Source of the DNA: an uncultured Nitrospirota bacterium
Lineage (GTDB): Bacteria; Nitrospirota; Thermodesulfovibrionia; Thermodesulfovibrionales; CALJEL01
NCBI GenBank assembly: GCA_947085365.1
Contig: CAMTWD010000028.1
Span: forward strand, 1-42,035
Direction of reading: 5' to 3'
Length of the DNA stretch: 42,035 nucleotides
The stretch's first letter is position 1. Each line of letters begins with the position of its first letter. The translations under genes and the position numbers were made by a program. Positions 263 through 42,035 of this stretch are shown in pieces. The notes under the pieces were generated by a model that saw nothing but the letters and a program-made list of their open reading frames with translations, did no database searches and was not told the origin of the DNA.

Positions 263-2353
263 TTACCATCTCTTTGAAAGGCTTACGATGAGTGTATGAA
301 GCTCGCCGTCCTGAGAGTCATTCCTTCTGTCATTATAATCAACGAAAGAATACCTTACACCAGCCTCAAGACCCTTTTTTATCTCATAATCTGCCCTCAA
401 TGTAAGACCTGCCTCCCTTATATCAGCCTCTGGCTCAAGTTCCTTTATCGAAAGGAGATCTGATGTCAGAACCCCTGGAAGGTATCTGCCCCTACTTATG
501 GTATAGGTAAGATCAAGTCCTGTGTTGAGATAGGTTAAGGGAAGATAATTTATGGTCACTCCAAAAATATGGGATGTATCTCTGTAAAGGACATCCCTGT
601 CAAGATGATATTCAGGTGTTGTGCCTGTATTGTTGTAAAGGATATCCTGGATTGTCCTATTCCTGATATAGGAATAAATTGGTGAGAGAGTAAGCCTCTC
701 TGTTAAGAGAAGGTTGAGGCTTCCAAAGAATCTTTCCCTCTTTATATCCCTTTCACCTGTCTTTACCAGGCTGTTATCGTCTATATAATTAAGCTCCTTC
801 CTCTTCTGTAAGGCAATACTGTACATGAAAAGACCGCTCATCCATTTAAGTGGTCTCCCGTTAAGAGAAAACCTTGCCTCATCAGACCTGTCAGCTTCAT
901 TATTATAGGCAGGGGCATCGATCTCCTGATGGATAAACTTTGTCTTGAATTCAAGGCTATTAAGAGGTCTTATGTTCGCACTCAGGGAAAAGGTATTCTT
1001 TACAGTCTCTTTAGGAAGTTTCCATTCCCTGGAGTTTTCCCTCTCGATCCTCTCTCCTGAATATTCACCATAAAGGGTAAGGCCTCTCATAACCCTGTAT
1101 CTCACAGTACCTGCTACGGAATCTGTTGTGGAGCTTATTGAAGGCCTCACAGATATAGCTGAGCTGTAAGCAGGGTAACCAAGATAATTTACTGGAATAA
1201 ACTCAGGGTTATCTGTATCAGCCTTTCTGTGCCTGTATCTTAAAAAGAATGTGAGATTGGGATGAGGCATGTATTGAAGGTCACCCGCAGCAATTGTATA
1301 CTCAGCCTTTGTTCCACTCGTTTCATTCTTCCTTTCTGTCTTTGAAAGTGTGGCTGCTGCCACAATCTGTCCTGTATAGGAGGTATGGATCTTTAATGTA
1401 GTTGTTGAACCCCTGAGGTCAGGCATAAGGTTGTGGGGATAGAGATTATCACCATAAATATTCTCCAATATCCTCTCACCTCCTACATCAAGTCTCTTCT
1501 CCATGCGGGTCAGTTCCACCTCTATAGGGCCTACATGGGCATTTGTCCCTACTGTAACAGACCTGCTCTCCCACTCAATATTCCTTGGTAGGGCTACCCT
1601 GTTTAGAGGAAGATAACTGGAAAGAAACCTCTGCTGTATTGAGCCATCCCTCTTTATCAAAAGGGTATCAATAAAGAGATGAAAGGGATAATCAGGGGCC
1701 TTCAATCTGAGGAGAAGGCTTGAGATGGAGTTTGAGGTTCCATATCTCCTTCCCTGATCCATCTGCTGGACAGTATATCGATCAGAAGGCCCGGGATCAA
1801 TCAGAAGTATATTATCAAGATTATGATAGAGTCCCCTCGTGAGACCCCTTAAAAGGAGGAGATCCTTATAGGCATAGCGGATATCACCATAAAAGTCCTC
1901 TTTATTTAATACCTCAAACTCCAGATGAATCCTGTGAGGGAATGGAAAGGCCTTAAGAAATATCTCACTGCCTAAGGATGACTGAAGATATTGAAACTCA
2001 CCTGCCCTTACCGATCCCTTATGCCCTAAGAATAGATACTGGGGTTTTATAAAGAGCTCCGGAGCTATTTCAGGAAATTCATAGAGATACACAGGCTCTT
2101 CATACTCCTTTTCCTCACTCGGTGGCGAGGTAACAGTGGGGGGTCTCGCAGGGGGAAACTGCGTTTCCCCCTGTGTACCCCCAACAGTTGGTGGCGAGGT
2201 AACAGTTGGAGTCTCGGCACCAGCATAAGAAGGCAAAAGGAGGATCAGGATTATAAAAAGGAGGCTTATTCTCCTAAAAGGTGGAGATGTAGGTTCGCCC
2301 CTGCGAATATCTGGGGTGTAAATATTTGATGGCAGATGTAACAAACCCTTCAC
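263..2353 (-). CDS. Outer-membrane beta-barrel porin, MtrB/PioB-like partner of a decaheme cytochrome
   Basis: Signal peptide, amphipathic beta-strand pattern, C-terminal aromatic residue (LSKRW), translational coupling to the decaheme gene; carries an in-frame repeat insert just after the signal peptide. Confidence 0.75.
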   Translation of the reverse strand: MKGLLHLPSNIYTPDIRRGEPTSPPFRRISLLFIILILLLPSYAGAETPTVTSPPTVGGTQGETQFPPARPPTVTSPPSEEKEYEEPVYLYEFPEIAPELFIKPQYLFLGHKGSVRAGEFQYLQSSLGSEIFLKAFPFPHRIHLEFEVLNKEDFYGDIRYAYKDLLLLRGLTRGLYHNLDNILLIDPGPSDRYTVQQMDQGRRYGTSNSISSLLLRLKAPDYPFHLFIDTLLIKRDGSIQQRFLSSYLPLNRVALPRNIEWESRSVTVGTNAHVGPIEVELTRMEKRLDVGGERILENIYGDNLYPHNLMPDLRGSTTTLKIHTSYTGQIVAAATLSKTERKNETSGTKAEYTIAAGDLQYMPHPNLTFFLRYRHRKADTDNPEFIPVNYLGYPAYSSAISVRPSISSTTDSVAGTVRYRVMRGLTLYGEYSGERIERENSREWKLPKETVKNTFSLSANIRPLNSLEFKTKFIHQEIDAPAYNNEADRSDEARFSLNGRPLKWMSGLFMYSIALQKRKELNYIDDNSLVKTGERDIKRERFFGSLNLLLTERLTLSPIYSYIRNRTIQDILYNNTGTTPEYHLDRDVLYRDTSHIFGVTINYLPLTYLNTGLDLTYTISRGRYLPGVLTSDLLSIKELEPEADIREAGLTLRADYEIKKGLEAGVRYSFVDYNDRRNDSQDGELHTLIVSLSKRW
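2121..2207 (+). repeat. Composite element: 18-bp repeat, GC hairpin, 18-bp repeat (in frame in the porin gene)
   Basis: GGTGGCGAGGTAACAGT at 2121 and 2190 flanking the hairpin at 2138-2182. Confidence 0.95.
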
Positions 2354-3375
2354 TGGATAAATCTCCCCTTTCCGCTCTGGGATGGGATATCAGAACCATG
2401 TATCCTTGAATGGCAGTCGGTGCACCTGCCATAAAAGGTGACCACTCTTTCCTTATCAGGACTCGACGAGATCCTGTGACCCTCGTGACACTGAAGACAG
2501 AGGAAGGGTTCCCGTGCTACAAGGAGATTATTATTCACAGAGCCATGGGGGAGATGACAGTTAAGACAGTTCTCCATAAGCTCTGCATGTTCATAAACAA
2601 AGGGACCCTCCTTGTCTGCATGACATTGAGTACACTGTTCCTTCACACCCTTTCTCAAAAGCTTTTCAGGGATATCTCCGTGGGGATTATGGCAGTCATT
2701 GCAGAAGACCTTATTCTCAGGGACAGGGTGGTGGCTGGGTAGCATAAATTCTGCCCTTATATTACTGTGGCACCTGTAACACATGGAGGCAGTCTCCTTC
2801 GGACTAACGATAAGGTCAGGACCGGCATGGATCCTGTGACAGTCTGAGCAGGAGACATCATTTATTGCATGGGCTGAACTGTTCCACTGGTGAAGATTAA
2901 ATGTGGCATTGGAGGTATGACATTTAAGACATATGAGGGAAAGGGCTGGTGGAGGAAGCCTCCTCCAGTCAATAAGTGTCTCATAATTACATTTTGTCTC
3001 AATGCCCCTCTTTCTGTCCTCCTCAACCTTCTCAGGGGTGATGCCCTCTATGGCAAGACTTCCAGGGCCATGGCAGGATTCACAATCCACAATAGGCATC
3101 CCCGATTTCCTTGAAAGCTGTGCACCCATTGTGCTTGCCTCAAAATCACGCCTTATCTTATCGTGGCTATGACATGCTGACAGACACCTGTCTGTTCCTA
3201 CATACTGGGCATCAATCCTTCCTGCTATTAATCTTTCATATTCCTTAATTGGAATGATCGGCTTTGAAACCTTGAGGGCCTCACACCCAGCTAAGGCAAT
3301 AATTAAAATAGAGAATACAAGGATCACCCCTTTATATATACCTGATTCCTCAAATATGTGTCTGAACACACTCAT
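2350..3375 (-). CDS. DmsE/MtrA-family decaheme c-type cytochrome (lipoprotein)
   Basis: 9 CxxCH plus 1 CxxxCH (CLSACH); LAGC lipobox; family motifs SHHPV, GPFVYEH, CHxPHGS, IHGSD. Confidence 0.9.
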   Translation of the reverse strand: MSVFRHIFEESGIYKGVILVFSILIIALAGCEALKVSKPIIPIKEYERLIAGRIDAQYVGTDRCLSACHSHDKIRRDFEASTMGAQLSRKSGMPIVDCESCHGPGSLAIEGITPEKVEEDRKRGIETKCNYETLIDWRRLPPPALSLICLKCHTSNATFNLHQWNSSAHAINDVSCSDCHRIHAGPDLIVSPKETASMCYRCHSNIRAEFMLPSHHPVPENKVFCNDCHNPHGDIPEKLLRKGVKEQCTQCHADKEGPFVYEHAELMENCLNCHLPHGSVNNNLLVAREPFLCLQCHEGHRISSSPDKERVVTFYGRCTDCHSRIHGSDIPSQSGKGRFIQ

Positions 3376-3380
3376 TACAA

Positions 3381-3397
3381 ACCCTTACCTTGCCACT
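3381..3397 (-). repeat. Degenerate 18-bp repeat, intergenic
   Basis: ACCCTTACCTTGCCACT. Confidence 0.5.
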
Positions 3398-3403
3398 AAA
3401 TCC

Positions 3404-5268: not shown

Positions 5269-5272
5269 CCCA

Positions 5273-5289
5273 ACTGTTACCTCGCCACT
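5273..5289 (-). repeat. 18-bp repeat upstream of rfaE2
   Basis: ACTGTTACCTCGCCACT. Confidence 0.9.
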
Positions 5290-6950: not shown

Positions 6951-8105
6951 TTAACCCCCTATAATCCTCCTGGCTTCATCCCTTGCCCATCTATCAGCCT
7001 CAAGGACTTCCTCTATAGAATTACAGGTCATCTTATGATGCCTCTGCATAACCTTTTCGATAATTAAGGGTATATCGTTAAATCCTATCCTCTCCTTTAA
7101 AAAGGCCTCCACAGCAACCTCATTTGCAGCATTCAATACTGAAGGCATCGTCCCTCCTTCCCTCAGGGCAGTATAGGCAAGCTCAAGGCATGGAAAGGCC
7201 TCCTTATCAGGTAATTCAAAGGTGAGGCTCTTCAGGACGCCAAAGTTAAGGGATTCCACAACCCCAGAAAGCCTCTCGGGATAAGAAAGGGCATAGGCAA
7301 TAGGCCCTTTCATATCAGGTCTTGATAGCTGGGCAATAATTGTTCCATCGTTGAACTCCACCATGGAATGGATGATGCTTTCAGGATGTATAATCACCTC
7401 TATCCTCTCAGGGGGTATCCCGAAAAGCCAGTATGCCTCAATAACCTCAAGTCCCTTATTCATGAGGGTTGCTGAGTCAATGGTGATCTTTGCTCCCATC
7501 TTCCAGTTGGGATGCCTCAAGGCCTCCTCGACCCTTACAGAACTGAGTTCCTTTTTAGACATTCCTCTAAAGGGGCCACCTGAGGCAGTAAGGATGAGCC
7601 TCCTTATCTCAGATCGATTCCTTCCCTCAAGGCACTGAAAGAGGGCAGAATGTTCACTATCAACGGGGATAATCTTTGCAGAACTCTTCCTCGCCTCCTC
7701 AATAACAATCTTCCCTGCTATAACGAGTGTCTCCTTGTTTGCAAGGCCTACCGTCTTTCCCTCCTTTATTGCTGAATAGGTGGGGAGAAGCCCTGCTGCA
7801 CCAACTATAGCTGATATAACAAAGTCTGCCTCATCCATTGTGGCCACCTCAATAAGTCCCTCAAGACCGGAGAGGACCATTACAGGAGCACCGTTGCCCA
7901 ACTCCGCAGTTAACCTCTCAGCGCACTCCCTCTCATAAACAGCAACCAGCTGAGGAGAAAACCTCTCTATCTGCTCCTTCAAAAGGGAGAGGTTTCCCCG
8001 AGCTGCAAGCCCTACCACCCTGAACCTATCCCTGTTGAGCCCTATTATCTCAAGGGTGCTCTTTCCTATTGAACCTGTTGAACCAAGTATGCTTATCCTT
8101 TTCAC
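6951..8105 (-). CDS. dxr: 1-deoxy-D-xylulose-5-phosphate reductoisomerase
   Basis: ILGSTGSIG, LANKE, PVDSEH, TASGGPF, NAANE; the GTG start overlaps an 18-bp repeat. Confidence 0.97.
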   Translation of the reverse strand: MKRISILGSTGSIGKSTLEIIGLNRDRFRVVGLAARGNLSLLKEQIERFSPQLVAVYERECAERLTAELGNGAPVMVLSGLEGLIEVATMDEADFVISAIVGAAGLLPTYSAIKEGKTVGLANKETLVIAGKIVIEEARKSSAKIIPVDSEHSALFQCLEGRNRSEIRRLILTASGGPFRGMSKKELSSVRVEEALRHPNWKMGAKITIDSATLMNKGLEVIEAYWLFGIPPERIEVIIHPESIIHSMVEFNDGTIIAQLSRPDMKGPIAYALSYPERLSGVVESLNFGVLKSLTFELPDKEAFPCLELAYTALREGGTMPSVLNAANEVAVEAFLKERIGFNDIPLIIEKVMQRHHKMTCNSIEEVLEADRWARDEARRIIGG

Positions 8106-8120
8106 TGTTAGTTCGCCACC
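8104..8120 (-). repeat. 18-bp repeat overlapping the dxr start
   Basis: ACTGTTAGTTCGCCACC. Confidence 0.85.
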
Positions 8121-8982: not shown

Positions 8983-9693
8983 TCATATCCCCCCAAATCT
9001 CCTCTCCCTTCTTTGGAAGTCCTGTATTGCCTCAAAAAATTCCTCCTTCGTAAAATCAGGCCAGAGTGTATCAGTAAAATAGAATTCAGCATAGGCAGAC
9101 TGATAAAGGAGAAAATTGCTGATCCGTTTCTCTCCCGATGTCCTTATGATGAGATCTGGATCGGGTATACCTGCTGTATCGAGGTAATTTTTGAAGCCCT
9201 CTTCATCAATAGAATCAGGGGCAGGCCTCTCCATAAGAATCCTTCTTACAGCCCTGATAATCTCATCCCTTCCACCATAACTGAGGCAGAGGTTTAAGTT
9301 CATTGCATTTCCACCAGCTGTGTAATCTTCTGTATCAGTAATGAGCTTCATTATGTCAGGAGGTATCATGGCCCTGTTGCCAATTACCCTGAAGCTTATG
9401 CCCCTTTTTTTCATATCTTCTCTTTCTTTCTGGAGATATTCCTTCAATAATTCCATGAGGGTAAAGACCTCATCCCGAGGTCTGCGCCAGTTCTCCAGAG
9501 AGAAGGCATAAAGGGTAAGGTTTTCAAGCCCTATATCAAAGGAGGCCTCTATTATCTCCTTTGCCCTCTGTGCACCCCTCCTGTGGCCTTCTGTCCTTGG
9601 TATGCCCCTTAACTCCGCCCATCTCCCATTTCCATCCATTATTATAGCTATATGCTTAGGAAGTCCCCTCACTGTTACCTCGCCACTAGGCAC
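8983..9693 (-). CDS. uppS: Undecaprenyl diphosphate synthase (alternative GTG start at 9672)
   Basis: HIAIIMDGNGRWA, FSLENW, DLIIRTSGEKRISNFLL. Confidence 0.96.
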   Translation of the reverse strand: MPSGEVTVRGLPKHIAIIMDGNGRWAELRGIPRTEGHRRGAQRAKEIIEASFDIGLENLTLYAFSLENWRRPRDEVFTLMELLKEYLQKEREDMKKRGISFRVIGNRAMIPPDIMKLITDTEDYTAGGNAMNLNLCLSYGGRDEIIRAVRRILMERPAPDSIDEEGFKNYLDTAGIPDPDLIIRTSGEKRISNFLLYQSAYAEFYFTDTLWPDFTKEEFFEAIQDFQRRERRFGGI

Positions 9694-9708
9694 TGTTAAC
9701 TCGCCACC
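9671..9708 (-). repeat. Two 18-bp repeats (21-nt period) at the uppS start
   Basis: ACTGTTACCTCGCCACT and ACTGTTAACTCGCCACC. Confidence 0.9.
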
Positions 9709-11406
9709 TCATCTCTTAAAGATATAAAGCCTCGTCTGTTTTGGATTCTCGCCCTTGAGAAGACTGCCAAGGCTTATTCCCATAAAAGGCTGTTGAAGTA
9801 TATAAAGCCTGTCGGCCGTGATCCAAAAGTCCATAATAGCACCTCCAACCTCCTTGATTCCCTCTTCTGTCATATTACCATCTCTCCATTGAAGGCTCAC
9901 AATCATGGAGGAGCTCCATCCAATACCCCTTGCGACACCTGAGATAGGTCTCCTCTTAATAACATAGGCCCTCTCTCCTTCAATAATAATCCTGTCCCAG
10001 AGACTCCATTCCTCTTCCCTAAGGATCAGGGAAAGAGAGGGTCTCTTAAAGGTATAAAAGGCTCCCCCTGTATCCTCCTTACTCCTCCAGAGGAGCCTTC
10101 CCTCCTTATCAAAGAGATTGAGATACCCCACCTTATCGTAGGATAAAAGAAGGTTCTCCTCTCCAATCTTTAATATATTGAAGCTAAGGATAGAGGTAAC
10201 TGGTATCGCTACATCCTTTTCAATGATCGCTGTTACCTCACCATCGTTGATATTTATCTTAAGCTCCTTTATCCTTCCTGTAGGCCCTTCATCGGAGGAA
10301 TATCCCTGCCAGAGTATCTTCCCATCAACAATCCTCAGAAATCCCTCTCTCTTATAAAGGGACTTAAAGGATCCATCCCTGAGTTCAAGTATCTCGGAAT
10401 AGACCCTGTCATTGTAAAGATAGGAGACCAAGATATCATACCTTCCATTTCTATTAAGGTCCCAGGAGTTAAGGGTGATTATCTCGCCCTTGAGCCTTAT
10501 CTCGTAAAGGCCCTTCAGGGTAACCCCCATCCGGTAGACCTCAACAGAATCGTCCTTAGCAATAACAAGCTCATCCACCCTATCACCATCTACATCAGAA
10601 AGATTGATAAACCTTACCGAACCAGGAAGCCTGAAGCTCAGAAGGAGGTCCGATTCCCTGAACTCCTTCTCATAAAGACCCTTCTCCTTTGATATCTTCT
10701 CAAGGTATTCTTTGGAGAGTCTCACCTCACCAGAAAGAAATACCATGCCTGTATCCGACCAGGCTAACTCATGTCTGAGGGCCTGGGCTTGATCATCAAT
10801 CCAAAGGGTAATAATTATATCTGATTCCTTCCTCTCATTTACTGGTTCAAACCTGCCTGTGGACTTCAGGGCCCTCAGGTAGTCCTCCGCAATAAAATAA
10901 TCAAGTCCGCTCAATCTCCGGGAGACTGTTACTTCGCCACCAAGTCCTGCCTCCTCTTTTAGAAAGACCTTTAAAGGCCTTTCAGGAAGAAAGGCTGATG
11001 CACCAGAACCGGCACTTCCCTTTAACAATCTCAGGATTGAATAATCCTCATAAACCTCCTCAACCTCAGCCAATCCTGTCTTTACATCAACAGTACCTAT
11101 CTCTTCCCGAGTTACAGGATGCCTCAGGGGCTGAGGGGTGGTTATCTCAAATCTCATCAACCTCTTAATTCCATCCTTTGTACCTGCCTTTATGAATATC
11201 CTTTCATTTTCCACATTCACAATCTTAAAAGACCTGGGTTTAAAGAATTCCAGAACCTCTGAGGTAAGACTCTTTAAAGGATCTACCGCACTTGGTGGCG
11301 AGGTAATCCTAGAAGTAATAGAGTCAGTGGCAAAAGAAGAAGGGATTAAAATCCCTCCAGAAAGCAAAAGGGCCATCAGAACCTTAAGGCGAAATAACTG
11401 TTTCAT
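9709..11406 (-). CDS. Exported hypothetical protein with FG-GAP/VCBS-like repeats
   Basis: Likely ATG at 11406 (RBS GGAG, signal peptide MKQLF...SFA); DVDGDRVDEL and DLNRNGRYDI motifs; the longer ORF-track start overlaps pheA. Confidence 0.7.
   Translation of the reverse strand: MKQLFRLKVLMALLLSGGILIPSSFATDSITSRITSPPSAVDPLKSLTSEVLEFFKPRSFKIVNVENERIFIKAGTKDGIKRLMRFEITTPQPLRHPVTREEIGTVDVKTGLAEVEEVYEDYSILRLLKGSAGSGASAFLPERPLKVFLKEEAGLGGEVTVSRRLSGLDYFIAEDYLRALKSTGRFEPVNERKESDIIITLWIDDQAQALRHELAWSDTGMVFLSGEVRLSKEYLEKISKEKGLYEKEFRESDLLLSFRLPGSVRFINLSDVDGDRVDELVIAKDDSVEVYRMGVTLKGLYEIRLKGEIITLNSWDLNRNGRYDILVSYLYNDRVYSEILELRDGSFKSLYKREGFLRIVDGKILWQGYSSDEGPTGRIKELKININDGEVTAIIEKDVAIPVTSILSFNILKIGEENLLLSYDKVGYLNLFDKEGRLLWRSKEDTGGAFYTFKRPSLSLILREEEWSLWDRIIIEGERAYVIKRRPISGVARGIGWSSSMIVSLQWRDGNMTEEGIKEVGGAIMDFWITADRLYILQQPFMGISLGSLLKGENPKQTRLYIFKR
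10925..10941 (-). repeat. 18-bp repeat in frame (GGEVTV); weaker copies at 10229-10245 and 11294-11307
   Basis: ACTGTTACTTCGCCACC. Confidence 0.9.
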
Positions 11407-12565: not shown

Positions 12566-12578
12566 CTGTTACTTCGCC
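12565..12578 (-). repeat. Partial repeat at the pheA stop
   Basis: ACTGTTACTTCGCC. Confidence 0.8.
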
Positions 12579-12588
12579 TGAGGTCTCA

Positions 12589-17927: not shown

Positions 17928-18019
17928 AGTTGCGAGGTAATAGTCTTATCCTCACCATAGTTAATGTTAATTATATCATATGGTGGCGAGGTAACAGTTG
18001 CCAGTGGCGAGGTAACAGT
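17928..18019 (+). repeat. Three repeats in a divergent promoter region
   Basis: Copies at 17928 (degenerate), 17982 and 18003. Confidence 0.88.
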
Positions 18020-18045
18020 TGTTTTTGATGTGATAAAATTATCTT

Positions 18046-19610: not shown

Positions 19611-19613
19611 CCA

Positions 19614-24521: not shown

Positions 24522-24559
24522 ATCTCACCTCATTGAAAATAATTTTATAGACCTCACCA

Positions 24560-24576
24560 ACTGTTACTTCGCCACC
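24560..24576 (-). repeat. Repeat between mqnB and hfq
   Basis: ACTGTTACTTCGCCACC. Confidence 0.9.
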
Positions 24577-26374: not shown

Positions 26375-26428
26375 TGTGGCGAAGTAACAGTTGGTGGCGA
26401 AGTAACAGTTGAAACTCACCTCGCCACT
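26375..26428 (+). repeat. Tandem pair plus inverted partial copy between nuoN and dgt
   Basis: Copies at 26375 and 26393; ACCTCGCCACT at 26418. Confidence 0.9.
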
Positions 26429-32210: not shown

Positions 32211-32833
32211 ATCTTATCCCCCTCATTTGGTGGCGAGGTAACCATCCATTCTCCTCTTATATTCCTTAACCTACCTTTTCTCCTTTTATATCTTTCAGGA
32301 TCAAATACTGCCTGACCTTCGTATTCCCTGTAATCATTGCTTACAGGATGCCAGAATCTCTTAAAGTATTCCTCACCCTTCTGACCTGCCATATATTTAT
32401 CCCAGTTCTCAAGGAGCCTGTCCATGGTCATATAAAAGTCATCCCTTGAGTAATTAGCATATTCATAATGTTCAGTAAGGCAGATTGCCTGGAAAGGACA
32501 GGCCTCAACACAGAGGCCACAATAAACACACCTTAAGACCTCAATCTCATATCCCTCAACTATCTTCTGATGGTCAGGGCCTTCAGAGGTATATACATGG
32601 ATACATTCTGAGGGGCAGATAGCTGCACAGAGGCCACACCCAACACACCTTGCAGTTCCATCAGGTCTCCTGGCAAGGGCATGAAGACCTCTGAATCCAG
32701 GTGCAGGAGGACGCCTCTCTTCTGGATACTGCCTCGTGACGGGTCTTGTAAAGAGCCTGCTTAATGTAAGGGCCATGCCCTTGAGGATCTCGATTAAGAA
32801 GACCTTATTGATAATCTCCTTTATCTTTGACAT
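32207..32833 (-). CDS. nuoI: NADH-quinone oxidoreductase subunit I
   Basis: T..YPEE, two CxxCxxCxxxCP motifs. Confidence 0.95.
   Translation of the reverse strand: MSKIKEIINKVFLIEILKGMALTLSRLFTRPVTRQYPEERRPPAPGFRGLHALARRPDGTARCVGCGLCAAICPSECIHVYTSEGPDHQKIVEGYEIEVLRCVYCGLCVEACPFQAICLTEHYEYANYSRDDFYMTMDRLLENWDKYMAGQKGEEYFKRFWHPVSNDYREYEGQAVFDPERYKRRKGRLRNIRGEWMVTSPPNEGDKI
32229..32242 (+). repeat. Partial repeat in the nuoI C-terminal tail (VTSPP)
   Basis: GGTGGCGAGGTAAC. Confidence 0.8.
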
Positions 32834-32854
32834 AATGCCTCCATATACAGGCTA

Positions 32855-32871
32855 ACTGTTACCTCGCCACT
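32855..32871 (-). repeat. Repeat overlapping the nuoH stop
   Basis: ACTGTTACCTCGCCACT. Confidence 0.9.
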
Positions 32872-33910
32872 ATATGATATCAAGGATCTTTAATGTCCCT
32901 GTAATGAATATATTTAAAAGGGCAAGGGGTATAAGAACCTTCCAGCCTATTGCCATGAGCTGATCATACCTGTACCTTGGAAGGGTTGCCCTGACCCAGT
33001 AAAAAAGGAATATAAAGAAATAGACCTTCAGGACAAACCAGACTATCCCTGGAATCACCGAGAGAAAGGGCATAATCTCTATAACTACAGGTGGAAGGGT
33101 CCACCCCCCAAAATAACAGATAGTAAGAAGGGAGGCCATTACAATCATGGCAATGTATTCTGCAGCATAAAAGAGGGCAAAACGAAATCCAGAATACTCC
33201 ACAAAGTAGCCTGCCACAAGCTCATTTTCTGCCTCAGGAAGGTCAAAGGGTGACCTGTTCGTCTCAGCAAAGGCTGCCACAAGAAAGACAAAGAGGCCCA
33301 GTATCTGTGGAATGGCAAACATTCCGTAGGGGTATCTTGTCTGGGCCTCCACTATCTCCCTTAGATTAAGAGAACCAGCCATTATCATCACACCCACAAG
33401 ACTCAGTCCCATGGCAATCTCATAACTCAAGACCTGTGATGATGACCTGAGACCTCCCAGAAAGGCATATTTTGAATTTGATGCCCATCCAGCCATAACT
33501 ATCCCGTAGGCACCAAGGGAAGACATGGCAAGGATAAAGAGAAGCCCTACATTTATATTTGCCACATACCAGTCCCTGTAAAAGGGGATCACACTTAAAG
33601 AGCTTATAGCAGCAACAAAGGATATAACAGGGGCAAAATAGAAGATCGGTCTGTCTGCCTGATGGGGAATTATGTCCTCTTTAAAAAAGAGCTTTATCAG
33701 GTCAGCAATGGGCTGGAGTATTCCATGGGGTCCAACCCTCATTGGCCCCATCCTTACCTGGATATGACCTATAACCTTTCTTTCAAAATAGGTTGCATAA
33801 GCCACATGAAACATGGCAACAGAGATAAGTATTATGGACTTCACAACGGCGGTTATCAGGCTCCATACCACGGGCTCAGTAATAACTGTTACCTCGCCAC
33901 CAAAGGACAT
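32870..33910 (-). CDS. nuoH: NADH-quinone oxidoreductase subunit H
   Basis: ERKV...Q.R.GP, AETNR.PFDLPEAE.ELVAG, PRYRYDQLM. Confidence 0.96.
   Translation of the reverse strand: MSFGGEVTVITEPVVWSLITAVVKSIILISVAMFHVAYATYFERKVIGHIQVRMGPMRVGPHGILQPIADLIKLFFKEDIIPHQADRPIFYFAPVISFVAAISSLSVIPFYRDWYVANINVGLLFILAMSSLGAYGIVMAGWASNSKYAFLGGLRSSSQVLSYEIAMGLSLVGVMIMAGSLNLREIVEAQTRYPYGMFAIPQILGLFVFLVAAFAETNRSPFDLPEAENELVAGYFVEYSGFRFALFYAAEYIAMIVMASLLTICYFGGWTLPPVVIEIMPFLSVIPGIVWFVLKVYFFIFLFYWVRATLPRYRYDQLMAIGWKVLIPLALLNIFITGTLKILDII
33885..33901 (-). repeat. Repeat at the nuoH N-terminus (GGEVTV)
   Basis: ACTGTTACCTCGCCACC. Confidence 0.9.
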
Positions 33911-33928: not shown

Positions 33929-36766
33929 CTATAGAGATATCTCAAATCTATCCATCAATGGTGCACCTGCAGGACCAATAGAAAAGCCCGTTAATACCCA
34001 AACTGTTACCTCGCTACTAACTGTTACTTCACCACCAATTGAGTCCGTCTCTCCAATAAAGCCAGGTATCTCAATAAGACCTTCAGGAAGGGAGTCTTCT
34101 ATCTTTACTGGCAGGGAGACGTCGTCGCCACTAACTGTTACCTCGCCACCAAAGGAGCTCCTAATCTTCACCTTCTGACCATCCCTGACTCCTAAGGTTT
34201 CTGCTGTCTTTAAGGCCATCTTCACAAAAGGCCTCCCAGAAATTAAACTTAAGGCTTTAGAATACCTGCTAATTGTAGCAGAAAGGAGGGAGTCTTTTTC
34301 AACTACTATTTTATAGCTATATGCAGAATCTACTGGGACTGTTACTTCGCCACCAACTGTTACCTCGCCACTAGGCGTAGTAAGTCCCTTTATCCATTCA
34401 TCTATCACAGCCTCTGTCTTTCTGAGGGGCTCACCCCTGTAGGGCCAGAGTACTCCTTCAATGAGTTCAGAAGGAGAGAGTCCTCTGTGGAGGCTTGAGG
34501 CAGTGCATATCTCCTTCCATAGTTCATCAATGGATGTATAAGGCATATTTATACCAATCCTTTTCCCGATCTCTCTGAAGACCTCCCAGTCACTGAGCAC
34601 TGTTACCTCGGGGGTACACAGGGGGGAACATTCGTTCCCCCCTGTGAGACCCCCCACTGTTACCTCGCCACTAAGCCCGGCTATCTCACTAACTCCTACT
34701 TCTCTACCAATCACTTCCGACCTCTGATTTCTGAAGAACTGTATCCTTCTTTCCATATTTGTGTAGCTTCCCTTCCTCTCAGGCCATGGCCTCACAGGGA
34801 TCCCTATATGGGCAAGCTCCATGGTATTTGTGAAAAAGGCATCCTGGACAATGAGGAGTTCAAGGTTCCTTAGGGCATTCCTTATCCTTCCTCCACCAGG
34901 CAATTCATTCACAGGATCAAACCCAGCCACATAAAGGGCCTTTATCTCTCCCTTCTCAATGCCCTCAATTATCTCATAAAGGGTCTTACCAGGGGAGGGC
35001 GTTATAGAGAATCCCCAGATATCTTCAAGATGAGATCTCCAGGCTGAAACAGTGAGGGATCTTCCTCCCGGAAGCATATCTGGGGAAAGACCCATATCTA
35101 TAAGGCCCTGCTCATTGGGAGAATTCTGGAGAAGGAATATCCTTGCATCAAGCAGATAAGCCATAATCCCTAAGGAGATGAGATCGTATAATCCACCCTC
35201 TCTCTGAAGGATCTCCCTTCCCAGGACAAAGGATATGAGGTCCTTTTGGGAGATCTCCCTTGCTATCTCTTTTATCCTCTCAGATGGTTCTATATCATTG
35301 AGATTGAGGATATCAATTAGCCTTTTTATCTTTTCTTCCTTAGGTGGAGAAGTAACAGTGCTTTTGATCTCTATCAAGGCCCTTGTAAGCTCCCTTAAGA
35401 CTAAGGACTCATCCTCTGCTTCTCCCATTGACCATGTCCTGTGCCTCCTGAGATTAGGACAGTACCCAATGGTCAAGACCTTTGCGCCTTTAAGATAGGC
35501 CCTTCTTATATGGACACCAAAGACAGGAGCAACCTGATAGGGATCACCCCCTGCAACTACTATTACCTCTGAATTCACTATGCCTTGAATCCTGTTTGCC
35601 GTTACACCAGGTCCAAAGAGCTCTTCAAAGAAGAGCTCCATCTGGATATAACCTGTCCTGGCAGAAGAATCTATATTGTTTGATCCAAGACCCCTTATCA
35701 ATTTGCCAAATAGATAGGCATCCTCATTTGTCAACCTTCCTCCAGCTATGGCCGCAATACTTCCTGGACCGTATTTATCTTTTATCTCCAGAAGATGAGA
35801 GGCAGTCTGTGTAAGGAGATCATCTATTTGGCGGGTATACCTCTCATTACCAATCCTCACAAAGGGTAATTTCAGGCGATTGCTGTGGTTAACAAAGTCA
35901 TATCCAAATCTGCCCATCATACAGGTAAGACCACGATTTGGTTCTGAGGTGTCTTCCAGATTTGACCAGAACCTCACAACTGTTGGGGGTACACAGGGGG
36001 AAACTGCGTTTCCCCCTGTGCGACCCCCAACTGTTACCTCGCCACCAATGGAACTACCCCTTCTCTGAATAAGAATCCTGCAACCCACACCGCAAAAACC
36101 ACATATGCCTTTCTGAGACTCTACAAGCCACGCCCTGTATTCATGGAGAGATAGTCTTGATACAAGGGCTCCTACAGGACAGGCACTCAGGCAGTTTCCG
36201 CAGTATTCACAGTTAAAGACCTTCCCTGAAAAGGGCTCAATAACGCTCCTGTCGCCTCTATGGACAACTGATAGGGCATCAGCTCCCTGAAGCTCCTGAC
36301 AGGTTCTGATGCATCTTGTGCAGAGAATACACCTCTTCATATTTCTCACAATCAAGGGATCATCCAGTACCTCAGGTAATTTCCTCTTTCTTTCCTTGAA
36401 CCTACCCTGAGAGGGACCATAAAGGAGCACAGCATCCTGAAGTTCACATTCACCCGCCTTATCGCAAACAGGACATTCCAAGGGGTGATTTATAAGTAGG
36501 AATTCCAGTATAGCACGCCTTGCCTTGATGACCTCCTCTGTATCTGTGCGGACAACCATTCCATCTGCCACCATTGTCGTGCAAGCTGTCTGGAGTCTTG
36601 GCATCCTCTCAATCTGCACAAGGCAGAGCCTGCATCCACCCCAGGGTGTTAATCCTTCAAGAAAACAGAGGGTTGGTATAGTGATCCCAGCCCTCTTTGC
36701 AGCCTCAAGAACTGTTAGAGGTTCTGAAAGGAATATGGTCCTGTCATTAATTGTTACCTTAATCAT
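33929..36766 (-). CDS. nuoG: NADH-quinone oxidoreductase subunit G (molybdopterin-oxidoreductase fold)
   Basis: IPTLC..CRLC, HPLECPVCDKAGEC.LQ, CILCTRC, CEYCGNC...CP, CGFCGVGC; likely ATG at 36766 with RBS GGGGAG; many repeat inserts. Confidence 0.9.
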   Translation of the reverse strand: MIKVTINDRTIFLSEPLTVLEAAKRAGITIPTLCFLEGLTPWGGCRLCLVQIERMPRLQTACTTMVADGMVVRTDTEEVIKARRAILEFLLINHPLECPVCDKAGECELQDAVLLYGPSQGRFKERKRKLPEVLDDPLIVRNMKRCILCTRCIRTCQELQGADALSVVHRGDRSVIEPFSGKVFNCEYCGNCLSACPVGALVSRLSLHEYRAWLVESQKGICGFCGVGCRILIQRRGSSIGGEVTVGGRTGGNAVSPCVPPTVVRFWSNLEDTSEPNRGLTCMMGRFGYDFVNHSNRLKLPFVRIGNERYTRQIDDLLTQTASHLLEIKDKYGPGSIAAIAGGRLTNEDAYLFGKLIRGLGSNNIDSSARTGYIQMELFFEELFGPGVTANRIQGIVNSEVIVVAGGDPYQVAPVFGVHIRRAYLKGAKVLTIGYCPNLRRHRTWSMGEAEDESLVLRELTRALIEIKSTVTSPPKEEKIKRLIDILNLNDIEPSERIKEIAREISQKDLISFVLGREILQREGGLYDLISLGIMAYLLDARIFLLQNSPNEQGLIDMGLSPDMLPGGRSLTVSAWRSHLEDIWGFSITPSPGKTLYEIIEGIEKGEIKALYVAGFDPVNELPGGGRIRNALRNLELLIVQDAFFTNTMELAHIGIPVRPWPERKGSYTNMERRIQFFRNQRSEVIGREVGVSEIAGLSGEVTVGGLTGGNECSPLCTPEVTVLSDWEVFREIGKRIGINMPYTSIDELWKEICTASSLHRGLSPSELIEGVLWPYRGEPLRKTEAVIDEWIKGLTTPSGEVTVGGEVTVPVDSAYSYKIVVEKDSLLSATISRYSKALSLISGRPFVKMALKTAETLGVRDGQKVKIRSSFGGEVTVSGDDVSLPVKIEDSLPEGLIEIPGFIGETDSIGGEVTVSSEVTVWVLTGFSIGPAGAPLMDRFEISL
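34002..34372 (-). repeat. Five repeats in frame in the nuoG 3' region
   Basis: Copies at 34002, 34020, 34134, 34338, 34356. Confidence 0.92.
34599..34672 (-). repeat. Composite hairpin-repeat element in frame in nuoG
   Basis: ACTGTTACCTC GGGGGTACACAGGGGGGAAC attc GTTCCCCCCTGTGAGACCCCCC ACTGTTACCTCGCCACT. Confidence 0.93.
35343..35359 (+). repeat. Repeat in nuoG, opposite orientation (TVTSPP)
   Basis: GGTGGAGAAGTAACAGT. Confidence 0.85.
35978..36046 (-). repeat. Composite hairpin-repeat element in frame in nuoG
   Basis: AACTGTT GGGGGTACACAGGGGGAAAC tgc GTTTCCCCCTGTGCGACCCCC AACTGTTACCTCGCCACC. Confidence 0.93.
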
Positions 36767-38639
36767 ACTTCTCCCCTGGTGGCGAGGTAACAGTTGTTGT
36801 CTCTTCACCAATCGGACATCTGCCGAGTCTTATATGTTCCTTAAACTCATCCTTGAAGTGCCTTAACATACCTGTAACAACACAGGCAGCAGCATCACCC
36901 AGGGCACAGAAGGTCTTTCCCGAGATATTCCCGCAGATCTCCTCAAGGAGCTCAAGGTCATCTTCACCTGCCCTTCCATCCTCAATCCTCTTGAGGATAT
37001 TTTCAAGCCAGCCTGTGCCTTCTCTACAGGGTGTACACTTTCCGCAGGACTCATCCCTGTAAAAACTCATTGCCCTCATGGCAATCCTCACCATACAATG
37101 GGATGACGAAAAGACCATCACTGCACCTGTACCCAACATGCTCTTCTTAGAGGCAAGCCCTGAAAAGTCAAGAGGGCAATCAAGATCAGCTGCTGTCAAG
37201 ACTGGAGTTGAAAGACCACCTGGAATAACAGCCTTTATATCATCGGCACCTCCAGCAAGCTGAATGAGCTCTCTTAAGGTGATACCTGTTGGCACTTCAT
37301 ACACCCCTGGTCTTCTTACACCACTTATGGAGAAGAGCTTCGGACCTGGGGCATCCTTTGAACCAATCCCCTGATAGGAAGTGGCACCAATATTCAGGAT
37401 AACAGGTATATTTGCGATTGTCTCTACATTATTTACCACCGTCGGCCTTCCGGAAAGACCACTATTTACAGGAAAGGGAGGCCTTATCCTTGGCTGTCCC
37501 CTTTTACCCTCTAAGGACTCGATAAGGGCTGTCTCCTCACCACAGATATACGCCCCTGCCCCCCTATGGATAAAGATATCAAAATTAAAGCCAGTTCCAA
37601 GGATATTCTCGCCAAGATAACCCTCAGACCTGGCAGACCTGATGGCCTCTTCAAGCACAGGGATAACCTCTGGATATTCATATCTGAGATAGATATATCC
37701 CACCTCTGCACCAATGGCATAGGCAGAGATGATCATCCCCTCAACTAATTGATGGGGATTCCTTCCAAGGATTATCCTGTCTTTGTAGGTACCTGGTTCA
37801 CCTTCATCAGCATTCGCAATAAGATATTTGGGTCTCTTGGGATCCTGTCTTGCAAAGGCCCATTTCATGCCTGTTGGAAACCCTGCACCACCACGACCCC
37901 TGAGTCCCGATGCCTTGACAAGGTCTATAATCTCTTCAGGTTTGAGTTGAAAGGCCTTTTTAAGGGCAGTGTAGCCACCCTTTTCTCTGTAAGAATCTAT
38001 ATCTATACAGTCAAGGGTTTTTAATAGGAGGCTTTCAGGCTCCATTGGAAAGACATCAATCTGAGAAAGGGTAGACTGGCCATTCTTCATATCATCAAAA
38101 CTGCCATTAATAATAGAGTCCATGATCTCTTCTATCTTTTCTATGTCCAGTCTTCCAAAGAGCCTTCCATTTACGAGCATGGCGGGTCCTATACCACAGG
38201 CACCAAGACATTCTGTGATCATGAGGCTGAAGATGGAGGGATCTTTGTAATGAAATATCTCAGGGCCTGAAGTCTTTTTTAACTCTTCAGCAGGAATCAG
38301 TTCGTATCTCTTTATAAGGTGATCTATCAATCTGTCAGCTCCGGCTACCATACAGGCCACATTCCTGCATATCTGGATAAAGTACCTTACCTTGCCACCT
38401 TGAGGAATAAAGTTATAAAAGCTATAAAAGGTGCCTACTCCCTTTATTAAGGCAGGGCTCTCTCCTGTGATCTCCGAGACCTTACGGAGATCCTCTTCAG
38501 TTAAATATCCTCTCCTCTCCTTCAGGATATGAAGGAGGGGCATTATAAGGGAAGACCTGAGGGGATAACGATTTATGAGAGAGGTATAATCCTCTGGAGT
38601 TAAAAAATTGGTATCTCTCCACTCTGCTCCTTTTTTCAT
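36759..38639 (-). CDS. nuoEF: NADH-quinone oxidoreductase fused subunits E and F
   Basis: N-terminal CRNVAC...CLGAC [2Fe-2S] (NuoE), then LRGRGGAGFP, NADEGEPG, GAGAYICGEE, CGKCTPCREG (NuoF). Confidence 0.9.
   Translation of the reverse strand: MKKGAEWRDTNFLTPEDYTSLINRYPLRSSLIMPLLHILKERRGYLTEEDLRKVSEITGESPALIKGVGTFYSFYNFIPQGGKVRYFIQICRNVACMVAGADRLIDHLIKRYELIPAEELKKTSGPEIFHYKDPSIFSLMITECLGACGIGPAMLVNGRLFGRLDIEKIEEIMDSIINGSFDDMKNGQSTLSQIDVFPMEPESLLLKTLDCIDIDSYREKGGYTALKKAFQLKPEEIIDLVKASGLRGRGGAGFPTGMKWAFARQDPKRPKYLIANADEGEPGTYKDRIILGRNPHQLVEGMIISAYAIGAEVGYIYLRYEYPEVIPVLEEAIRSARSEGYLGENILGTGFNFDIFIHRGAGAYICGEETALIESLEGKRGQPRIRPPFPVNSGLSGRPTVVNNVETIANIPVILNIGATSYQGIGSKDAPGPKLFSISGVRRPGVYEVPTGITLRELIQLAGGADDIKAVIPGGLSTPVLTAADLDCPLDFSGLASKKSMLGTGAVMVFSSSHCMVRIAMRAMSFYRDESCGKCTPCREGTGWLENILKRIEDGRAGEDDLELLEEICGNISGKTFCALGDAAACVVTGMLRHFKDEFKEHIRLGRCPIGEETTTVTSPPGEKYD
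36778..36794 (+). repeat. Repeat in the nuoEF C-terminal tail (TVTSPP)
   Basis: GGTGGCGAGGTAACAGT. Confidence 0.9.
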
Positions 38640-38659: not shown

Positions 38660-38676
38660 GGTGGCGAAGTAACAGT
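38660..38676 (+). repeat. Repeat between nuoD and nuoEF
   Basis: GGTGGCGAAGTAACAGT. Confidence 0.9.
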
Positions 38677-38694
38677 ATGTCTGCCTTCCCTCTG

Positions 38695-41334: not shown

Positions 41335-41340
41335 AGGGAT

Positions 41341-41370
41341 TTTATACACCAATCCCTTTACCTTTGTCAA
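41341..41370 (-). promoter_or_regulatory. Putative sigma70 promoter of the nuo operon
   Basis: TTGACA-18 nt-TATAAA on the minus strand, 6 nt before ATG 41334. Confidence 0.5.
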
Positions 41371-41486
41371 TAGAATACCTCTTTCCGGTTAGGACGCCGT
41401 CTTAGGGTAAAAATAAACCATGGAATTATACTGACCCCATGCGGGATGTATTGCCTTGAAGGGCTACTGTGTTGTATCATTCAGAT

Positions 41487-42035
41487 ATGGTGGGGGAGGC
41501 CTTAAGAAAGGCGAGGGTCTCAAAGGGCATCAGCCTGGAAAAGGCCTCCTCTGACCTGAAGATAAGGGCCACCTACCTTAATGCCCTTGAAGAGGAAAGG
41601 TTTGATCAGTTCCCTGCAGATGTGTATACAATGGGTTATCTCAGGGCCTATGCCCAGTATCTCGGTCTTGAGGCAGGGCCTTTGATTGAGGAATTCAAGA
41701 AGATAAATGCCCAGAGGCTTCAAGGGCCATTCCTGACTGTTACCCCTCCACCTATCCATGAAAATAGCAAGGTTCAAGGGTCACTACAAAGGCTTAGAGA
41801 GGTGGTTCTGAAAAGTTGTGTACCCATGATAGTTTTACTATTATCTGCCCTCCTGCTCTTCTTCATATTTAAAACTACAACCATCAAAGAATCATTAAAA
41901 GAAGAAGCTAAGATCCCCTTACCCGTTTTTACATCTCCCCCAACGGCTCAGGAATCCCTGACTGTTACTTCTCCACTTATTAATGAACATATCCTGAAGA
42001 TAACAGCCACTGAGCTCACATGGCTTCTCATAGAA
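41487..42035 (+). CDS. rodZ: RodZ-like protein (HTH, TM, DUF4115), truncated by the window end
   Basis: MVGEALRKAR..KGISLE.....KIR..YL.ALEE..F...P..VY..GYLR.YA.YLGL, a TM segment, then HILKITATELTW. Confidence 0.85.
   Translation, partial: MVGEALRKARVSKGISLEKASSDLKIRATYLNALEEERFDQFPADVYTMGYLRAYAQYLGLEAGPLIEEFKKINAQRLQGPFLTVTPPPIHENSKVQGSLQRLREVVLKSCVPMIVLLLSALLLFFIFKTTTIKESLKEEAKIPLPVFTSPPTAQESLTVTSPLINEHILKITATELTWLLIE
41736..41977 (-). repeat. Two degenerate repeats in frame in rodZ linkers (TVTPPP, TVTSPL)
   Basis: ACTGTTACCCCTCCACC at 41736 and ACTGTTACTTCTCCACT at 41961. Confidence 0.75.

Follow-up and report, generated by a model that had tools for sequence, protein, structure and literature searches.

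The 42,035-nt stretch analysed here (the window) raises the question of what a short sequence scattered along it is, and how it came to be there. At up to 3 mismatches, AACTGTTACYTCGCCACY matched the window 41 times between 2121 and 41977 (0.03 matches expected by chance), and none of 100 shuffled windows reached this number. The abundant dispersed repeat reported in the first-pass annotation was thus recovered, but its count of about 45 copies, split 19/26 between orientations, became 41 at this threshold, with 23 + and 18 - strand copies. The host genome (G000) is a draft Thermodesulfovibrionales MAG of 1.51 Mb, 91% complete; the host was characterised as a hot-spring-type bacterium. Across its 1,509,282 bases, AACTGTTACYTCGCCACY occurs 267 times exactly, 567 times at up to 1 mismatch and 931 times at up to 3. 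Copies in the window are listed in the table.

Repeat copies and associated elements in the window. Gaps are those of orthologous proteins at the site; fold values are predicted for the palindromic element as DNA.
Position	Strand	Feature	Location and reading	Orthologues, strains, fold
2121..2138	-	copy, 1 mismatch	MtrB/PioB-like porin ORF, TVTSPP	
2139..2182	-	44-nt palindromic element	between repeat pieces; the repeat's ACTGTT duplicated on both sides, 2183-2189 being an extra AACTGTT	fold -18 kcal/mol, z -5.2
2190..2207	-	exact copy	MtrB/PioB-like porin ORF, TVTSPP	
3380..3397	+	degenerate copy, 3 mismatches	intergenic	
5272..5289	+	exact copy	intergenic, adjoins heptamer arrays	
8103..8120	+	copy, 2 mismatches	edge of ORF 6951-8105	
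9670..9708	+	two copies, 21 nt apart	start of undecaprenyl-diphosphate synthase ORF and gap before next gene	
10924..10941	+	copy, 1 mismatch	antisense in ORF 9709-11586, GGEVTV	
12564..12581	+	degenerate copy, 3 mismatches	at stop of ORF 11498-12565	
16029..16064	+	two copies, 18 nt apart, PNVSSPLTVTSPL	aconitase	13-14-aa gap in 4 of 4 genus orthologues
17928..18020	-	three copies: 17928 degenerate; 17982 and 18003 exact, 21 nt apart	intergenic, upstream of ORF 18046-19125	
19613..19766	+ (19613), - (19726, 19749)	group of copies	intergenic	
20350..20367	-	exact copy	antisense in RACo, SGEVTV	7-aa gap in G002 and G003
20604..20624	+	copy and junction, 21 nt	RACo, TVTSPL	7-aa gap in G002
21972..21989	-	copy, 2 mismatches	between two genes	
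24559..24576	+	exact copy	intergenic	
25289..25306	-	exact copy	residue 2 of ORF 24584-25309, probably upstream of its real start	
26375..26410	-	two copies, 18 nt apart	upstream of conserved start of HD phosphohydrolase gene	
26835..26870	-	two copies, 18 nt apart, ATVTSPPPVTSPP	NuoN-like gene	12-aa gap in G002 and G003
32229..32246	-	degenerate copy	near NuoI C-terminus	9 extra bases behind 32242 in contigs of runs X1 and X3
32854..32871	+	exact copy	between nuoI and nuoH	
33884..33901	+	exact copy	NuoH N-terminus, GGEVTV	
34001..34036	+	two copies, 18 nt apart, GGEVTVSSEVTV	antisense in NuoG	13-aa gap
34133..34150	+	exact copy	antisense in NuoG	8-aa gap
34337..34372	+	two copies, 18 nt apart	antisense in NuoG	9-aa gap; remainder aligned with unlike residues
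34598..34672	-	composite: copy 34655-34672, 45-nt palindromic element 34610-34654, duplicated GAGGTAACAGTG 34598-34609	NuoG	gap of about 22-29 aa; fold -23.7 kcal/mol, z -6.4
35343..35360	-	older copy, 2 mismatches	NuoG, TVTSPP	site common to G000, G001 and, decayed, metagenome locus L082
35978..36046	-	composite: copy 36029-36046, 44-nt palindromic element 35985-36028, duplicated AACAGTT 35978-35984	NuoG	23-aa gap in all orthologues; fold -23.2 kcal/mol, z -7.4
36778..36795	-	exact copy	C-terminus of NuoE/F fusion, TVTSPP	10-aa gap in 3 orthologues
38660..38677	-	copy, 1 mismatch	between two nuo genes	
41735..41977	+	two degenerate copies, at 41735 and 41960	open-ended ORF 41469-42035, TVTPPP and TVTSPL	

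Alignment of the copies reduced the conserved part to a 17-nt core, ACTGTTACYTCGCCACY, followed by 1-4 variable junction bases, so that the whole unit measures 18-21 nt. Of 1009 cores found at up to 3 mismatches, 474 are exact. The core is directly followed by AA in 66-70% of copies, and two variable positions, Y9 and Y17, are unlinked (the four combinations occur 193, 179, 155 and 137 times). The repeat is non-palindromic, as first described: fold prediction detected no hairpin in the 17-mer, with only -1.7 and -2.0 kcal/mol for a tandem pair (z -2.2 and -1.2). There are no terminal inverted repeats in the consensus and no variable target-site duplication, flank identity being no higher than chance (largest |z| 2.3). 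The repeat therefore lacks the anatomy of any well-understood transposition pathway. For lack of inverted termini and of flank identity above chance, it is not a MITE either.

The repeat is multi-copy in this genus only. Six genomes of the genus contain 567, 56, 15, 8, 8 and 0 copies at up to 1 mismatch, the first number being that of G000, and 35 other genomes of the order contain 0-1 each. Of 401 genomes sampled across the phylum, 392 contained no copy, and single copies turned up in 5 that do not belong to the genus. These counts, across the genome and its sisters, had been proposed as a check in the first-pass annotation. G000 has undergone a large recent burst. The 17-nt consensus is identical in five species.

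Did the copies arise by insertion or by substitution? Comparison with orthologues was possible for 15 window copies: 10 fall wholly in alignment gaps, 2 partly and 3 outside them. Gaps occur at copies in NuoG, NuoN, aconitase, RACo and the NuoE/F fusion, as expected for the insertions initially proposed. Conversely, G001 and G002 carry copies where G000 is empty (gaps of 27, 24, 32 and 15 nt), and the NuoG of L082 has copies at sites of its own. Other sites are shared: C100 of G000 and L038 of G001 have a copy at the same site, and an intact G003 copy aligns with a decayed window copy near 24290. Polymorphism, also suggested as a check, was seen between closely related strains. One empty site is resolved to the base: a contig of run X2 is short of exactly the 21 nt at 20604..20624. 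Three others were deduced from shorter contigs of run X3, which belongs to a second study; each of the intervals concerned contains one copy, and the contigs spanning 21438-22151 (copy 21972..21989), 33197-33967 (copy 33884..33901) and 36550-37279 (copy 36778..36795) are 19, 17 and 18 nt shorter, respectively. The polarity of these polymorphisms, gain versus loss, is based on outgroup orthologues. Thus, several species of a single Thermodesulfovibrionales genus have gained the repeat at many independent sites; closely related strains differ in the presence of individual copies, in agreement with the active insertion first claimed, and old copies decay.

The relation of the repeat to reading frames was also analyzed. 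As had been noticed, more than half of the window copies leave the frame unbroken: 26 of 41 lie wholly within ORFs of at least 100 aa, with no stop; 5 others straddle an ORF boundary and the remaining 10 lie between genes. Some of these "ORF" copies, at residues 2-10, are probably upstream of the true start. The 18-nt pairs (16029/16047, 26375/26393, 26835/26853, 34001/34019, 34337/34355) and 21-nt pairs (9670/9691, 17982/18003) of the first-pass annotation are all present, and a further pair, 19726/19749, is spaced by 23 nt. However, the element is not codon-length, as had been proposed, since the core is 17 nt with 1-4 junction bases and spacings of 18, 19, 20 and 21 nt all occur. Pairs spaced by 18 or 21 nt lie inside ORFs in 86 of 150 cases, against 2 of 36 for spacings of 19 or 20 nt, which are thus nearly confined to non-coding DNA. 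The in-frame appearance is therefore largely a selection filter. Consistently, 398 of 856 cores (46%) lie in or at the edge of non-coding DNA, which makes up about 9% of the genome, and the frame counts within ORFs are very uneven (193, 159, 37, 36, 32 and 1; chi-square p = 3e-86). The two favoured frames within genes read TVTSPP and GGEVTV; there, the 6-7 residues added to many essential proteins are harmless. Selection shapes which copies survive. The copies themselves are young, as indicated by the proportion of exact cores and by four-fold-degenerate positions, which are conserved as much as the others.

A second element, absent from the first-pass annotation, nests in the repeat. It is palindromic, 44-45 nt long, and duplicates part of the repeat; at least 50 of its 77 copies are located in the repeat with such flank duplication. 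Repeat copies may be a landing pad for a second, MITE/REP-like parasite, which would duplicate 6-13 nt of the repeat on entry.

Altogether, the repeat is probably a genus-specific, non-autonomous, selfish micro-insertion element. The unit, an unstructured core with its junction bases, would insert at new sites in both orientations with little regard to gene structure. Purifying selection would then do the sorting, by eliminating lengths that shift the frame, the frame that contains a stop and most copies in awkward frames. Survivors would accumulate between genes, at their ends and within variable loops, and local slippage may then expand some of them into arrays. An 18-nt word is too short to encode an enzyme and must therefore move in trans, as had been proposed; the machinery would recognize the 17-nt core. 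Its behaviour is that of a mobile element, and among those observed to date it would be one of the smallest.

The search for this machinery bears on the nature of the insertion. The reverse transcriptase domain RVT_1 was absent from 5 of 5 genomes (G000-G004), while the same search was positive in 3 control genomes. The Y1 transposase (PF01797) had no match in G000, 91% complete, and had matches in G001-G004. None of DDE_Tnp_1, rve, IS110 and TnpB tracks the copy number. Hence none of these enzyme genes shows the matching distribution that was to be looked for. All genomes are draft MAGs, so the mobilising gene may be unassembled. Spread through RNA, a short core transcript being reverse-transcribed into nicks or breaks in a target-primed manner, is reportedly the route proposed by Elhai and co-workers for cyanobacterial repeats. 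Under this scheme junctions should vary, a fixed target duplication should be missing and AA should often follow the core; junctions do vary by 1-4 nt, no variable target duplication was found, AA is common at that position and Y9 and Y17 are unlinked. Given that RVT_1 was not found in G000-G004 and that an Rfam search of the window matched no family, we consider this route unlikely; a sequence-specific insertion activity acting on DNA is favoured over reverse transcription.

The copies might also have multiplied without any transposition, from a few ancestral seeds, by replication slippage, and then spread through ectopic gene conversion and inter-strain homologous recombination. Two or more copies are present at 188 of 767 loci, neighbouring copies agree at Y9 beyond chance (125 versus 57), and identical 21-nt units form arrays at C99:4008 and C73:4961. 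Multi-copy loci and the agreement of neighbours indicate that slippage, not transposition, supplies part of the copy number. However, the other 579 loci are single-copy, in unrelated genes whose orthologues have no repeat-like sequence, which also excludes a minisatellite confined to tandem arrays. Gene conversion requires flanking homology, which an 18-nt word in unique genes does not offer, and copy sites differ between species. As a full account, this scheme is distinctly improbable.

It is very improbable that the repeat is a functional word retained through selection or molecular drive, whether for DNA uptake, for binding by a nucleoid protein or regulator, or as a Chi/KOPS-like signal. 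Neisseria DUS and Pasteurellaceae USS occur about once per 1-2 kb, in both orientations and in tolerant frames inside genes; they arise by equal-length substitution and have a similar density across a family. The repeat, at 0.6 per kb genome-wide, likewise occurs in both orientations, inside and outside genes, with tolerant frames, intergenic enrichment and a consensus common to five species. Against this, its copies arose by insertion (10 of 15 wholly in gaps), their number differs more than 500-fold within one genus (0 to 567), old orthologous copies decay, linkers in tandem arrays vary, and replichore-like polarity was not seen, most contigs being near 50:50. Finally, although the DNA near contig ends (3.4% of the total) holds 59 of 856 copies, a twofold excess, one assembly contig ends in an adapter-like string and Logan contigs show many cross-joints at copies, an adapter, linker or assembly chimera is scarcely conceivable, given that the repeat is found in MAGs of several independent submissions, runs of two studies and a JGI metagenome contig, that some sites are orthologous between species, and that frame and length filtering in ORFs cannot stem from library preparation.

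We return to the probable selfish insertion element and the systems closest to it. The first-pass annotation had stated that it fits none of the known elements compared, overlooking two precedents, cyanobacterial small dispersed repeats (SDRs) and the REPs and RPEs located within genes (PMC3733652). Some REPs occupy the ends or loops of known genes, in frame (PMC3733652). REPs share with our repeat a high copy number, short length, occasional in-frame location and use as targets by other elements, but they are palindromic hairpins, often GTAG/CGTC-tagged and linked to Y1 (RAYT) genes. The 17-mer forms no stable hairpin and G000 has no Y1 match, so a REP/REPIN-RAYT system was rejected; the REP-like part is the nested palindrome (-18 to -23.7 kcal/mol). 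Rickettsia RPEs (Ogata 2000) are described as palindromic, about 100-150 bp long and in frame in essential genes (PMC3733652, PMC3184786). Tolerated in-frame insertion into essential genes, adding peptide segments, is common to both, but our unit is 18-21 nt, unstructured, and adds 6-7 aa.

SDR1-8 of Nostocaceae, reportedly described by Elhai et al. in 2008, are said to have units of 21-27 nt, SDR4-6 having a common predicted secondary structure. Like our repeat, they are very short, far below MITE size, dispersed and lineage-restricted. Recent mobility, deduced from filled and empty sites, and nested or precise insertion with other short repeats are found in both, and heptamer tandem arrays accompany both in their host genomes; no enzyme is known for SDRs or for our repeat. 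The association of the repeat with these heptamers (19 of 83 arrays) is not above chance. SDRs are described as confined to Nostocaceae (PMC5861425) and SDR5 is inserted in HIP1 (PMC4390886). The repeat differs in its shorter core (17 nt), in lacking predicted secondary structure, in its unrelated sequence and Nitrospirota host, and in having more than half of its copies in ORFs with a clear frame filter. Moreover, it hosts a nested palindrome, whereas SDRs are guests of HIP1 or heptamers. The repeat is thus best read as functionally like the cyanobacterial SDRs, but smaller and unstructured.

At up to three mismatches, the window contains 41 copies of AACTGTTACYTCGCCACY, against a chance expectation of 0.03 (none of 100 shuffles came near 41). 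The plus strand carries 23 of these copies and the minus strand 18; ORFs of 100 aa or longer contain 26, ORF edges five and intergenic DNA ten. All seven tandem pairs reported by the first-pass annotation were confirmed, with the spacing of 18 or 21 nt that it had given. In the whole host MAG (G000; 1,509,282 bases in 128 contigs, the window being C28; 44.3% G+C), 267 exact copies were found, 567 at up to one mismatch and 931 at up to three, or 0.62 per kb.

A per-position profile of 764 copies delimited a conserved core of 17 nt, ACTGTTACYTCGCCACY. Most core positions are 92-99% conserved, and two, named Y9 and Y17, are split between C and T (about 55:44 and 50:48). The base preceding the core is A in just 58% of copies, the two bases 3' of it are A in 66% and 70%, and a weak C-rich stretch lies upstream. 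The core itself is present 474 times exactly in G000; allowing one, two, three or four mismatches raises the count to 684, 856, 1009 and 1178. Same-strand neighbours are spaced by 18 nt (90 pairs), 19 nt (19), 20 nt (18), 21 nt (67) or 22 nt (3). Therefore the unit consists of the core and one to four variable junction bases, and is no fixed 18-mer. Copies are single at 579 loci, double at 146 and triple at 34, with four, five and six copies at 5, 2 and 1 loci. No meaningful fold of the repeat was obtained on either strand of a tandem pair (-1.7 and -2.0 kcal/mol), and no Rfam family was matched in the window.

These copies are insertions. Window proteins, with gene names assigned via Pfam, were aligned to their orthologues in four other species of the same genus (G001, G002, G003 and G005), G004 being added for aconitase. 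Among the 15 window copies that could be judged, ten fall wholly in orthologue gaps, two partly and three do not, which bears out the preference of the first-pass annotation for insertion over substitution. Not counted among the 15 are three more copies within called ORFs, each placed ahead of a conserved start codon. NuoG alone holds nine repeat copies and two copies of a nested palindrome described below. NuoE-like (2Fe-2S thioredoxin-like) and NuoF-like (51K FMN-binding) domains share one 626-aa ORF in the window, and this fusion is conserved in the genus.

Window features and their relation to orthologue alignments. TVTSPP is one of the two main reading frames of copies inside ORFs.
Feature	Position	Observation
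NuoG	33929-36811	orthologue gaps of 23, about 22-29, 8 and 13 aa fall at copies
NuoG, tandem pair		9-aa orthologue gap spans part of the pair
NuoG, TVTSPP copy	35343	aligned to residues; site common to G001
RACo	20011-21969	both copies in 7-aa orthologue gaps
NuoN-like gene		tandem pair in a 12-aa orthologue gap
NuoE/F fusion	36759-38639	C-terminal copy in a 10-aa orthologue gap
NuoI		degenerate C-terminal copy; orthologue gap of just 2 aa
NuoH		N-terminal copy stands in place of unlike residues
Aconitase		tandem pair in a 13-14-aa gap in 4/4 orthologues
Palindromic element	2139-2182	in frame in an ORF
Palindromic element	34610-34654	in frame in an ORF
Palindromic element	35985-36028	in frame in an ORF

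The repeat is restricted to one lineage. Counting in sister genomes, as had been suggested earlier, gave 567 (G000), 56, 15, 8, 8 and 0 copies at up to one mismatch in the six genomes of the genus, and 0 or 1 in 35 other genomes of the order; a control with the reversed pattern gave 0 copies. The repeat occurs in the lineages of G000, G001, G002, G003, G005 and the metagenome locus L082, and is missing from G004. In a 401-genome sample of the phylum, multi-copy matches were confined to G000, G001 and G002, and outside the genus there was one match in 5 genomes and none in 392. A scan of GTDB representatives returned multi-copy matches in Thermodesulfovibrionales, the others being single, at chance level and in unrelated taxa.

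Within the genus, copies have been gained independently and have decayed. Copies in relatives were taken as the start and their flanks were mapped back onto G000. Sites empty in G000 were found for G001 copies in intergenic (27-nt gap) and coding DNA (24-nt gap), for a G001 double copy (32-nt gap) and for one G002 copy (15-nt gap). G001 and G000 each carry a copy at one common site (G001 L038 and G000 contig C100). An intact G003 copy aligns with a decayed window copy at the orthologous site, AAGTGGAAAGGTGACAG, at about 24277-24310 (near 24290), which had escaped the 3-mismatch search. A metagenome scan with NuoG gave 80 loci, none of them strain-level. Only L082 (six cores) and L083 (one core), the two closest loci, have the repeat; thus the scan yields species-level sites and no base-exact empty sites. 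NuoG of L082 shows copies at its own sites and, in decayed form, the TVTSPP site that G000 and G001 have in common. The repeat family therefore predates these species. Insertion has continued in several lineages, with no upkeep of old copies.

The NuoG region is present in five public runs from two studies, and contigs of four runs were placed on window 17500-37400 at a likeness threshold of 88%. The repeat proved polymorphic, a point that the earlier reading had proposed to check: precisely the 21 nt starting at 20604 are missing from one contig of run X2, corresponding to a copy and its junction (TACTGTTACTTCGCCACTAAG). In run X3, a hot-spring metagenome from the second study, contigs fall short of the window by 19, 17 and 18 nt in three intervals, each holding one copy (21972, 33884 and 36778). 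These length differences are consistent with missing copies, without amounting to proof. Behind 32242, contigs of runs X1 and X3 have 9 extra bases (AGTTGGGGT), which complete the degenerate NuoI copy and start a palindromic element; thus the window version looks like a 9-nt deletion allele. A rearrangement reading of the uncovered parts and of the many cross-joints at copies was rejected. These were taken as repeat-induced assembly links, joints at dispersed repeats being usual assembler behaviour.

Copies inside genes are filtered by frame and by length. A rough ORF call on G000 gave 1451 ORFs covering 91% of the DNA, and 236 of them contain at least one core. Of the 856 cores, 398 fall within the non-coding remainder (about 9% of the DNA) or on its edge, an enrichment of about five-fold. 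The 458 cores inside ORFs are read mostly as TVTSP(P/L) (193) or (G/S)GEVTV (159); three awkward frames account for 37, 36 and 32 and the stop-containing frame for 1 (chi-square p = 3e-86). Only 2 of 36 pairs spaced by 19 or 20 nt lie inside ORFs, versus 86 of 150 pairs spaced by 18 or 21 nt. Copies are most frequent at ORF ends, with 85 in the first tenth and 74 in the last, the middle tenths having 23-49. The C/T split of Y9 and Y17 is the same in and out of ORFs, and sites with four-fold degeneracy in both main frames show the same conservation as the remaining positions. Therefore the variants arrive together with the copies, which are mostly young.

A k-mer survey of G000 revealed further short-repeat families. 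One of them, nested inside 17-mer copies, is a near-perfect palindrome of 44-45 nt, GGGGGTC(T/G)CACAGGGGG(G/A)AAC...GTT(C/T)CCCCCTGTGTACCCCC, with a DNA fold of -18 to -23.7 kcal/mol (z -5 to -7). G000 has about 60-77 instances, and at least 50 of the 77 loosely defined ones lie inside a 17-mer copy. A direct duplication that covers 6-7 nt (AACAGTT) or 11-13 nt (CGARGTAACAGT) of the repeat flanks these instances. An exact pattern retrieved 37 from G000 and none from G001-G005. The palindromic element behaves in a MITE- or REP-like manner, and the 17-mer is its preferred target. Tandem heptamers (AGGCTGA/AGGCTTA and complement), present at 5294-5423 of the window and in 83 arrays of G000, are reminiscent of cyanobacterial STRR heptamers. 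An association of heptamers with cores, like that of small dispersed repeats (SDRs), was rejected: a core lies within 60 nt of 19 of the 83 arrays, which is not above the expectation from intergenic density. G000 contigs besides the window (e.g. C3:29, C46:9336, C107:8316) also have, often at contig ends, a longer composite repeat in intergenic DNA that includes CCCCTTTGGGGAGAG (42 matches) and AAATAGAGATAGAAAT (34 matches). One end of contig C33 is AGATCGGAAGAGCGTCGTGTA, which we take to be the start of an Illumina adapter; this end is probably untrimmed adapter in the assembly.

The mobiliser gene of matching distribution envisaged by the first-pass annotation did not emerge: none of the tested domains tracks the repeat among G000-G004, five related genomes that give little power. 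DDE_Tnp_1 occurs in G003 and, in G000, as a 101-aa remnant on contig C123, which is not bounded by copies and was rejected as a master element. Likewise rejected were the IS3-like contig C41 of G000 and, among relatives, the Y1, IS110 and rve loci, all without a repeat copy. Two TnpB/Cas12f-like genes (PF07282) were found in G000 (C9:45302-46987, 561 aa; C52:68-1408, 446 aa), the only one of the five genomes with this domain above cut-off. Neither locus has a repeat copy, and these genes were discarded as mobiliser; no Y1 partner was found for them, nor any Y1 transposase (Y1_Tnp) in G000. Within the same five genomes, rve was detected in G000 and G001 and weakly in G003, and IS110 in G001 and G003 only. 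Ku was found in all except G000, and Cas1 in G002-G004 only, being undetected in G000 and in G001, the second most repeat-rich. With five related draft genomes, the Ku/Cas1 pattern is at most a lead; the missing genes may reflect assembly incompleteness. At 1.5 Mb and 91% completeness, G000 is smaller than its relatives (1.8-2.5 Mb). Comparison of the 10 bases on each side of 369 solo copies gave no diagonal (largest |z| 2.3), and the idea of a variable target duplication was therefore dropped. A constant A...AA duplication may be present at solo copies.

Altogether, the evidence agrees with a micro-insertion element that is selfish and non-autonomous, has secondarily multiplied by slippage and has been strongly filtered by selection. 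Our inference is that the core is inserted by a sequence-specific activity acting in trans, which works on DNA and not via RNA. The first rival is RNA-mediated spread of the core; RVT_1 was absent from G000-G004. The second is slippage and recombination alone, with no transposition. Arrays of identical 21-nt units (e.g. C99:4008, C73:4961) are a signature of slippage, and neighbours share the Y9 variant above chance (125 concordant versus 57, p = 4e-7), with no above-chance concordance for Y17. The third rival holds the repeat to be a functional or uptake motif; copy orientation is about 50:50 on most of the 21 contigs holding at least 12 copies, arrays causing a skew on two of them. This balance speaks against a polar signal. 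An artefact comes last among the rivals.

Tentatively, and with more doubt than confidence, we propose that, of all mobile DNA elements observed so far, the 17-nt core is the smallest. Its mover would need no terminal inverted repeats, hairpin or fixed target duplication, and might be a sequence-specific oligonucleotide-insertion or templated-synthesis activity undescribed in bacteria; a burst would have put hexa- or heptapeptide tags in about one-sixth of the ORFs (236/1451), including core complex I subunits. If so, a structureless, non-coding word of 17 bases can come to occupy roughly a thousand sites of a genome of 1.5 Mb, and the lower size limit of mobile DNA moves down, through an insertion that known transposition chemistries do not predict. 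The burst would then serve as an insertion scan done by nature across the whole genome, showing where proteins accept 6-7 added residues; surviving copies are predicted to lie in surface loops and linkers. In practice, such repeats fragment assemblies and may misguide the annotation of gene starts and ends.

A full-text literature search found no description of the 17-mer repeat. REPs and RPEs within genes are already described in PMC3733652 and PMC3184786, and the intragenic REPs listed in Additional file 3 of the former may help to judge whether the intragenic share of the 17-mer is out of the ordinary; its in-frame share in core genes is unusual. Here, outside cyanobacteria, short repeats form three layers (17-mer, nested palindrome, heptamers), and the movement of 'very small mobile repeats' becomes testable in a second, unrelated lineage. 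The SDRs of Nostocaceae, treated in PMC5861425 and PMC4390886, are the closest described system. The 17-mer works alike, yet is no member of that group, being shorter, unstructured, unrelated in sequence and from another phylum.
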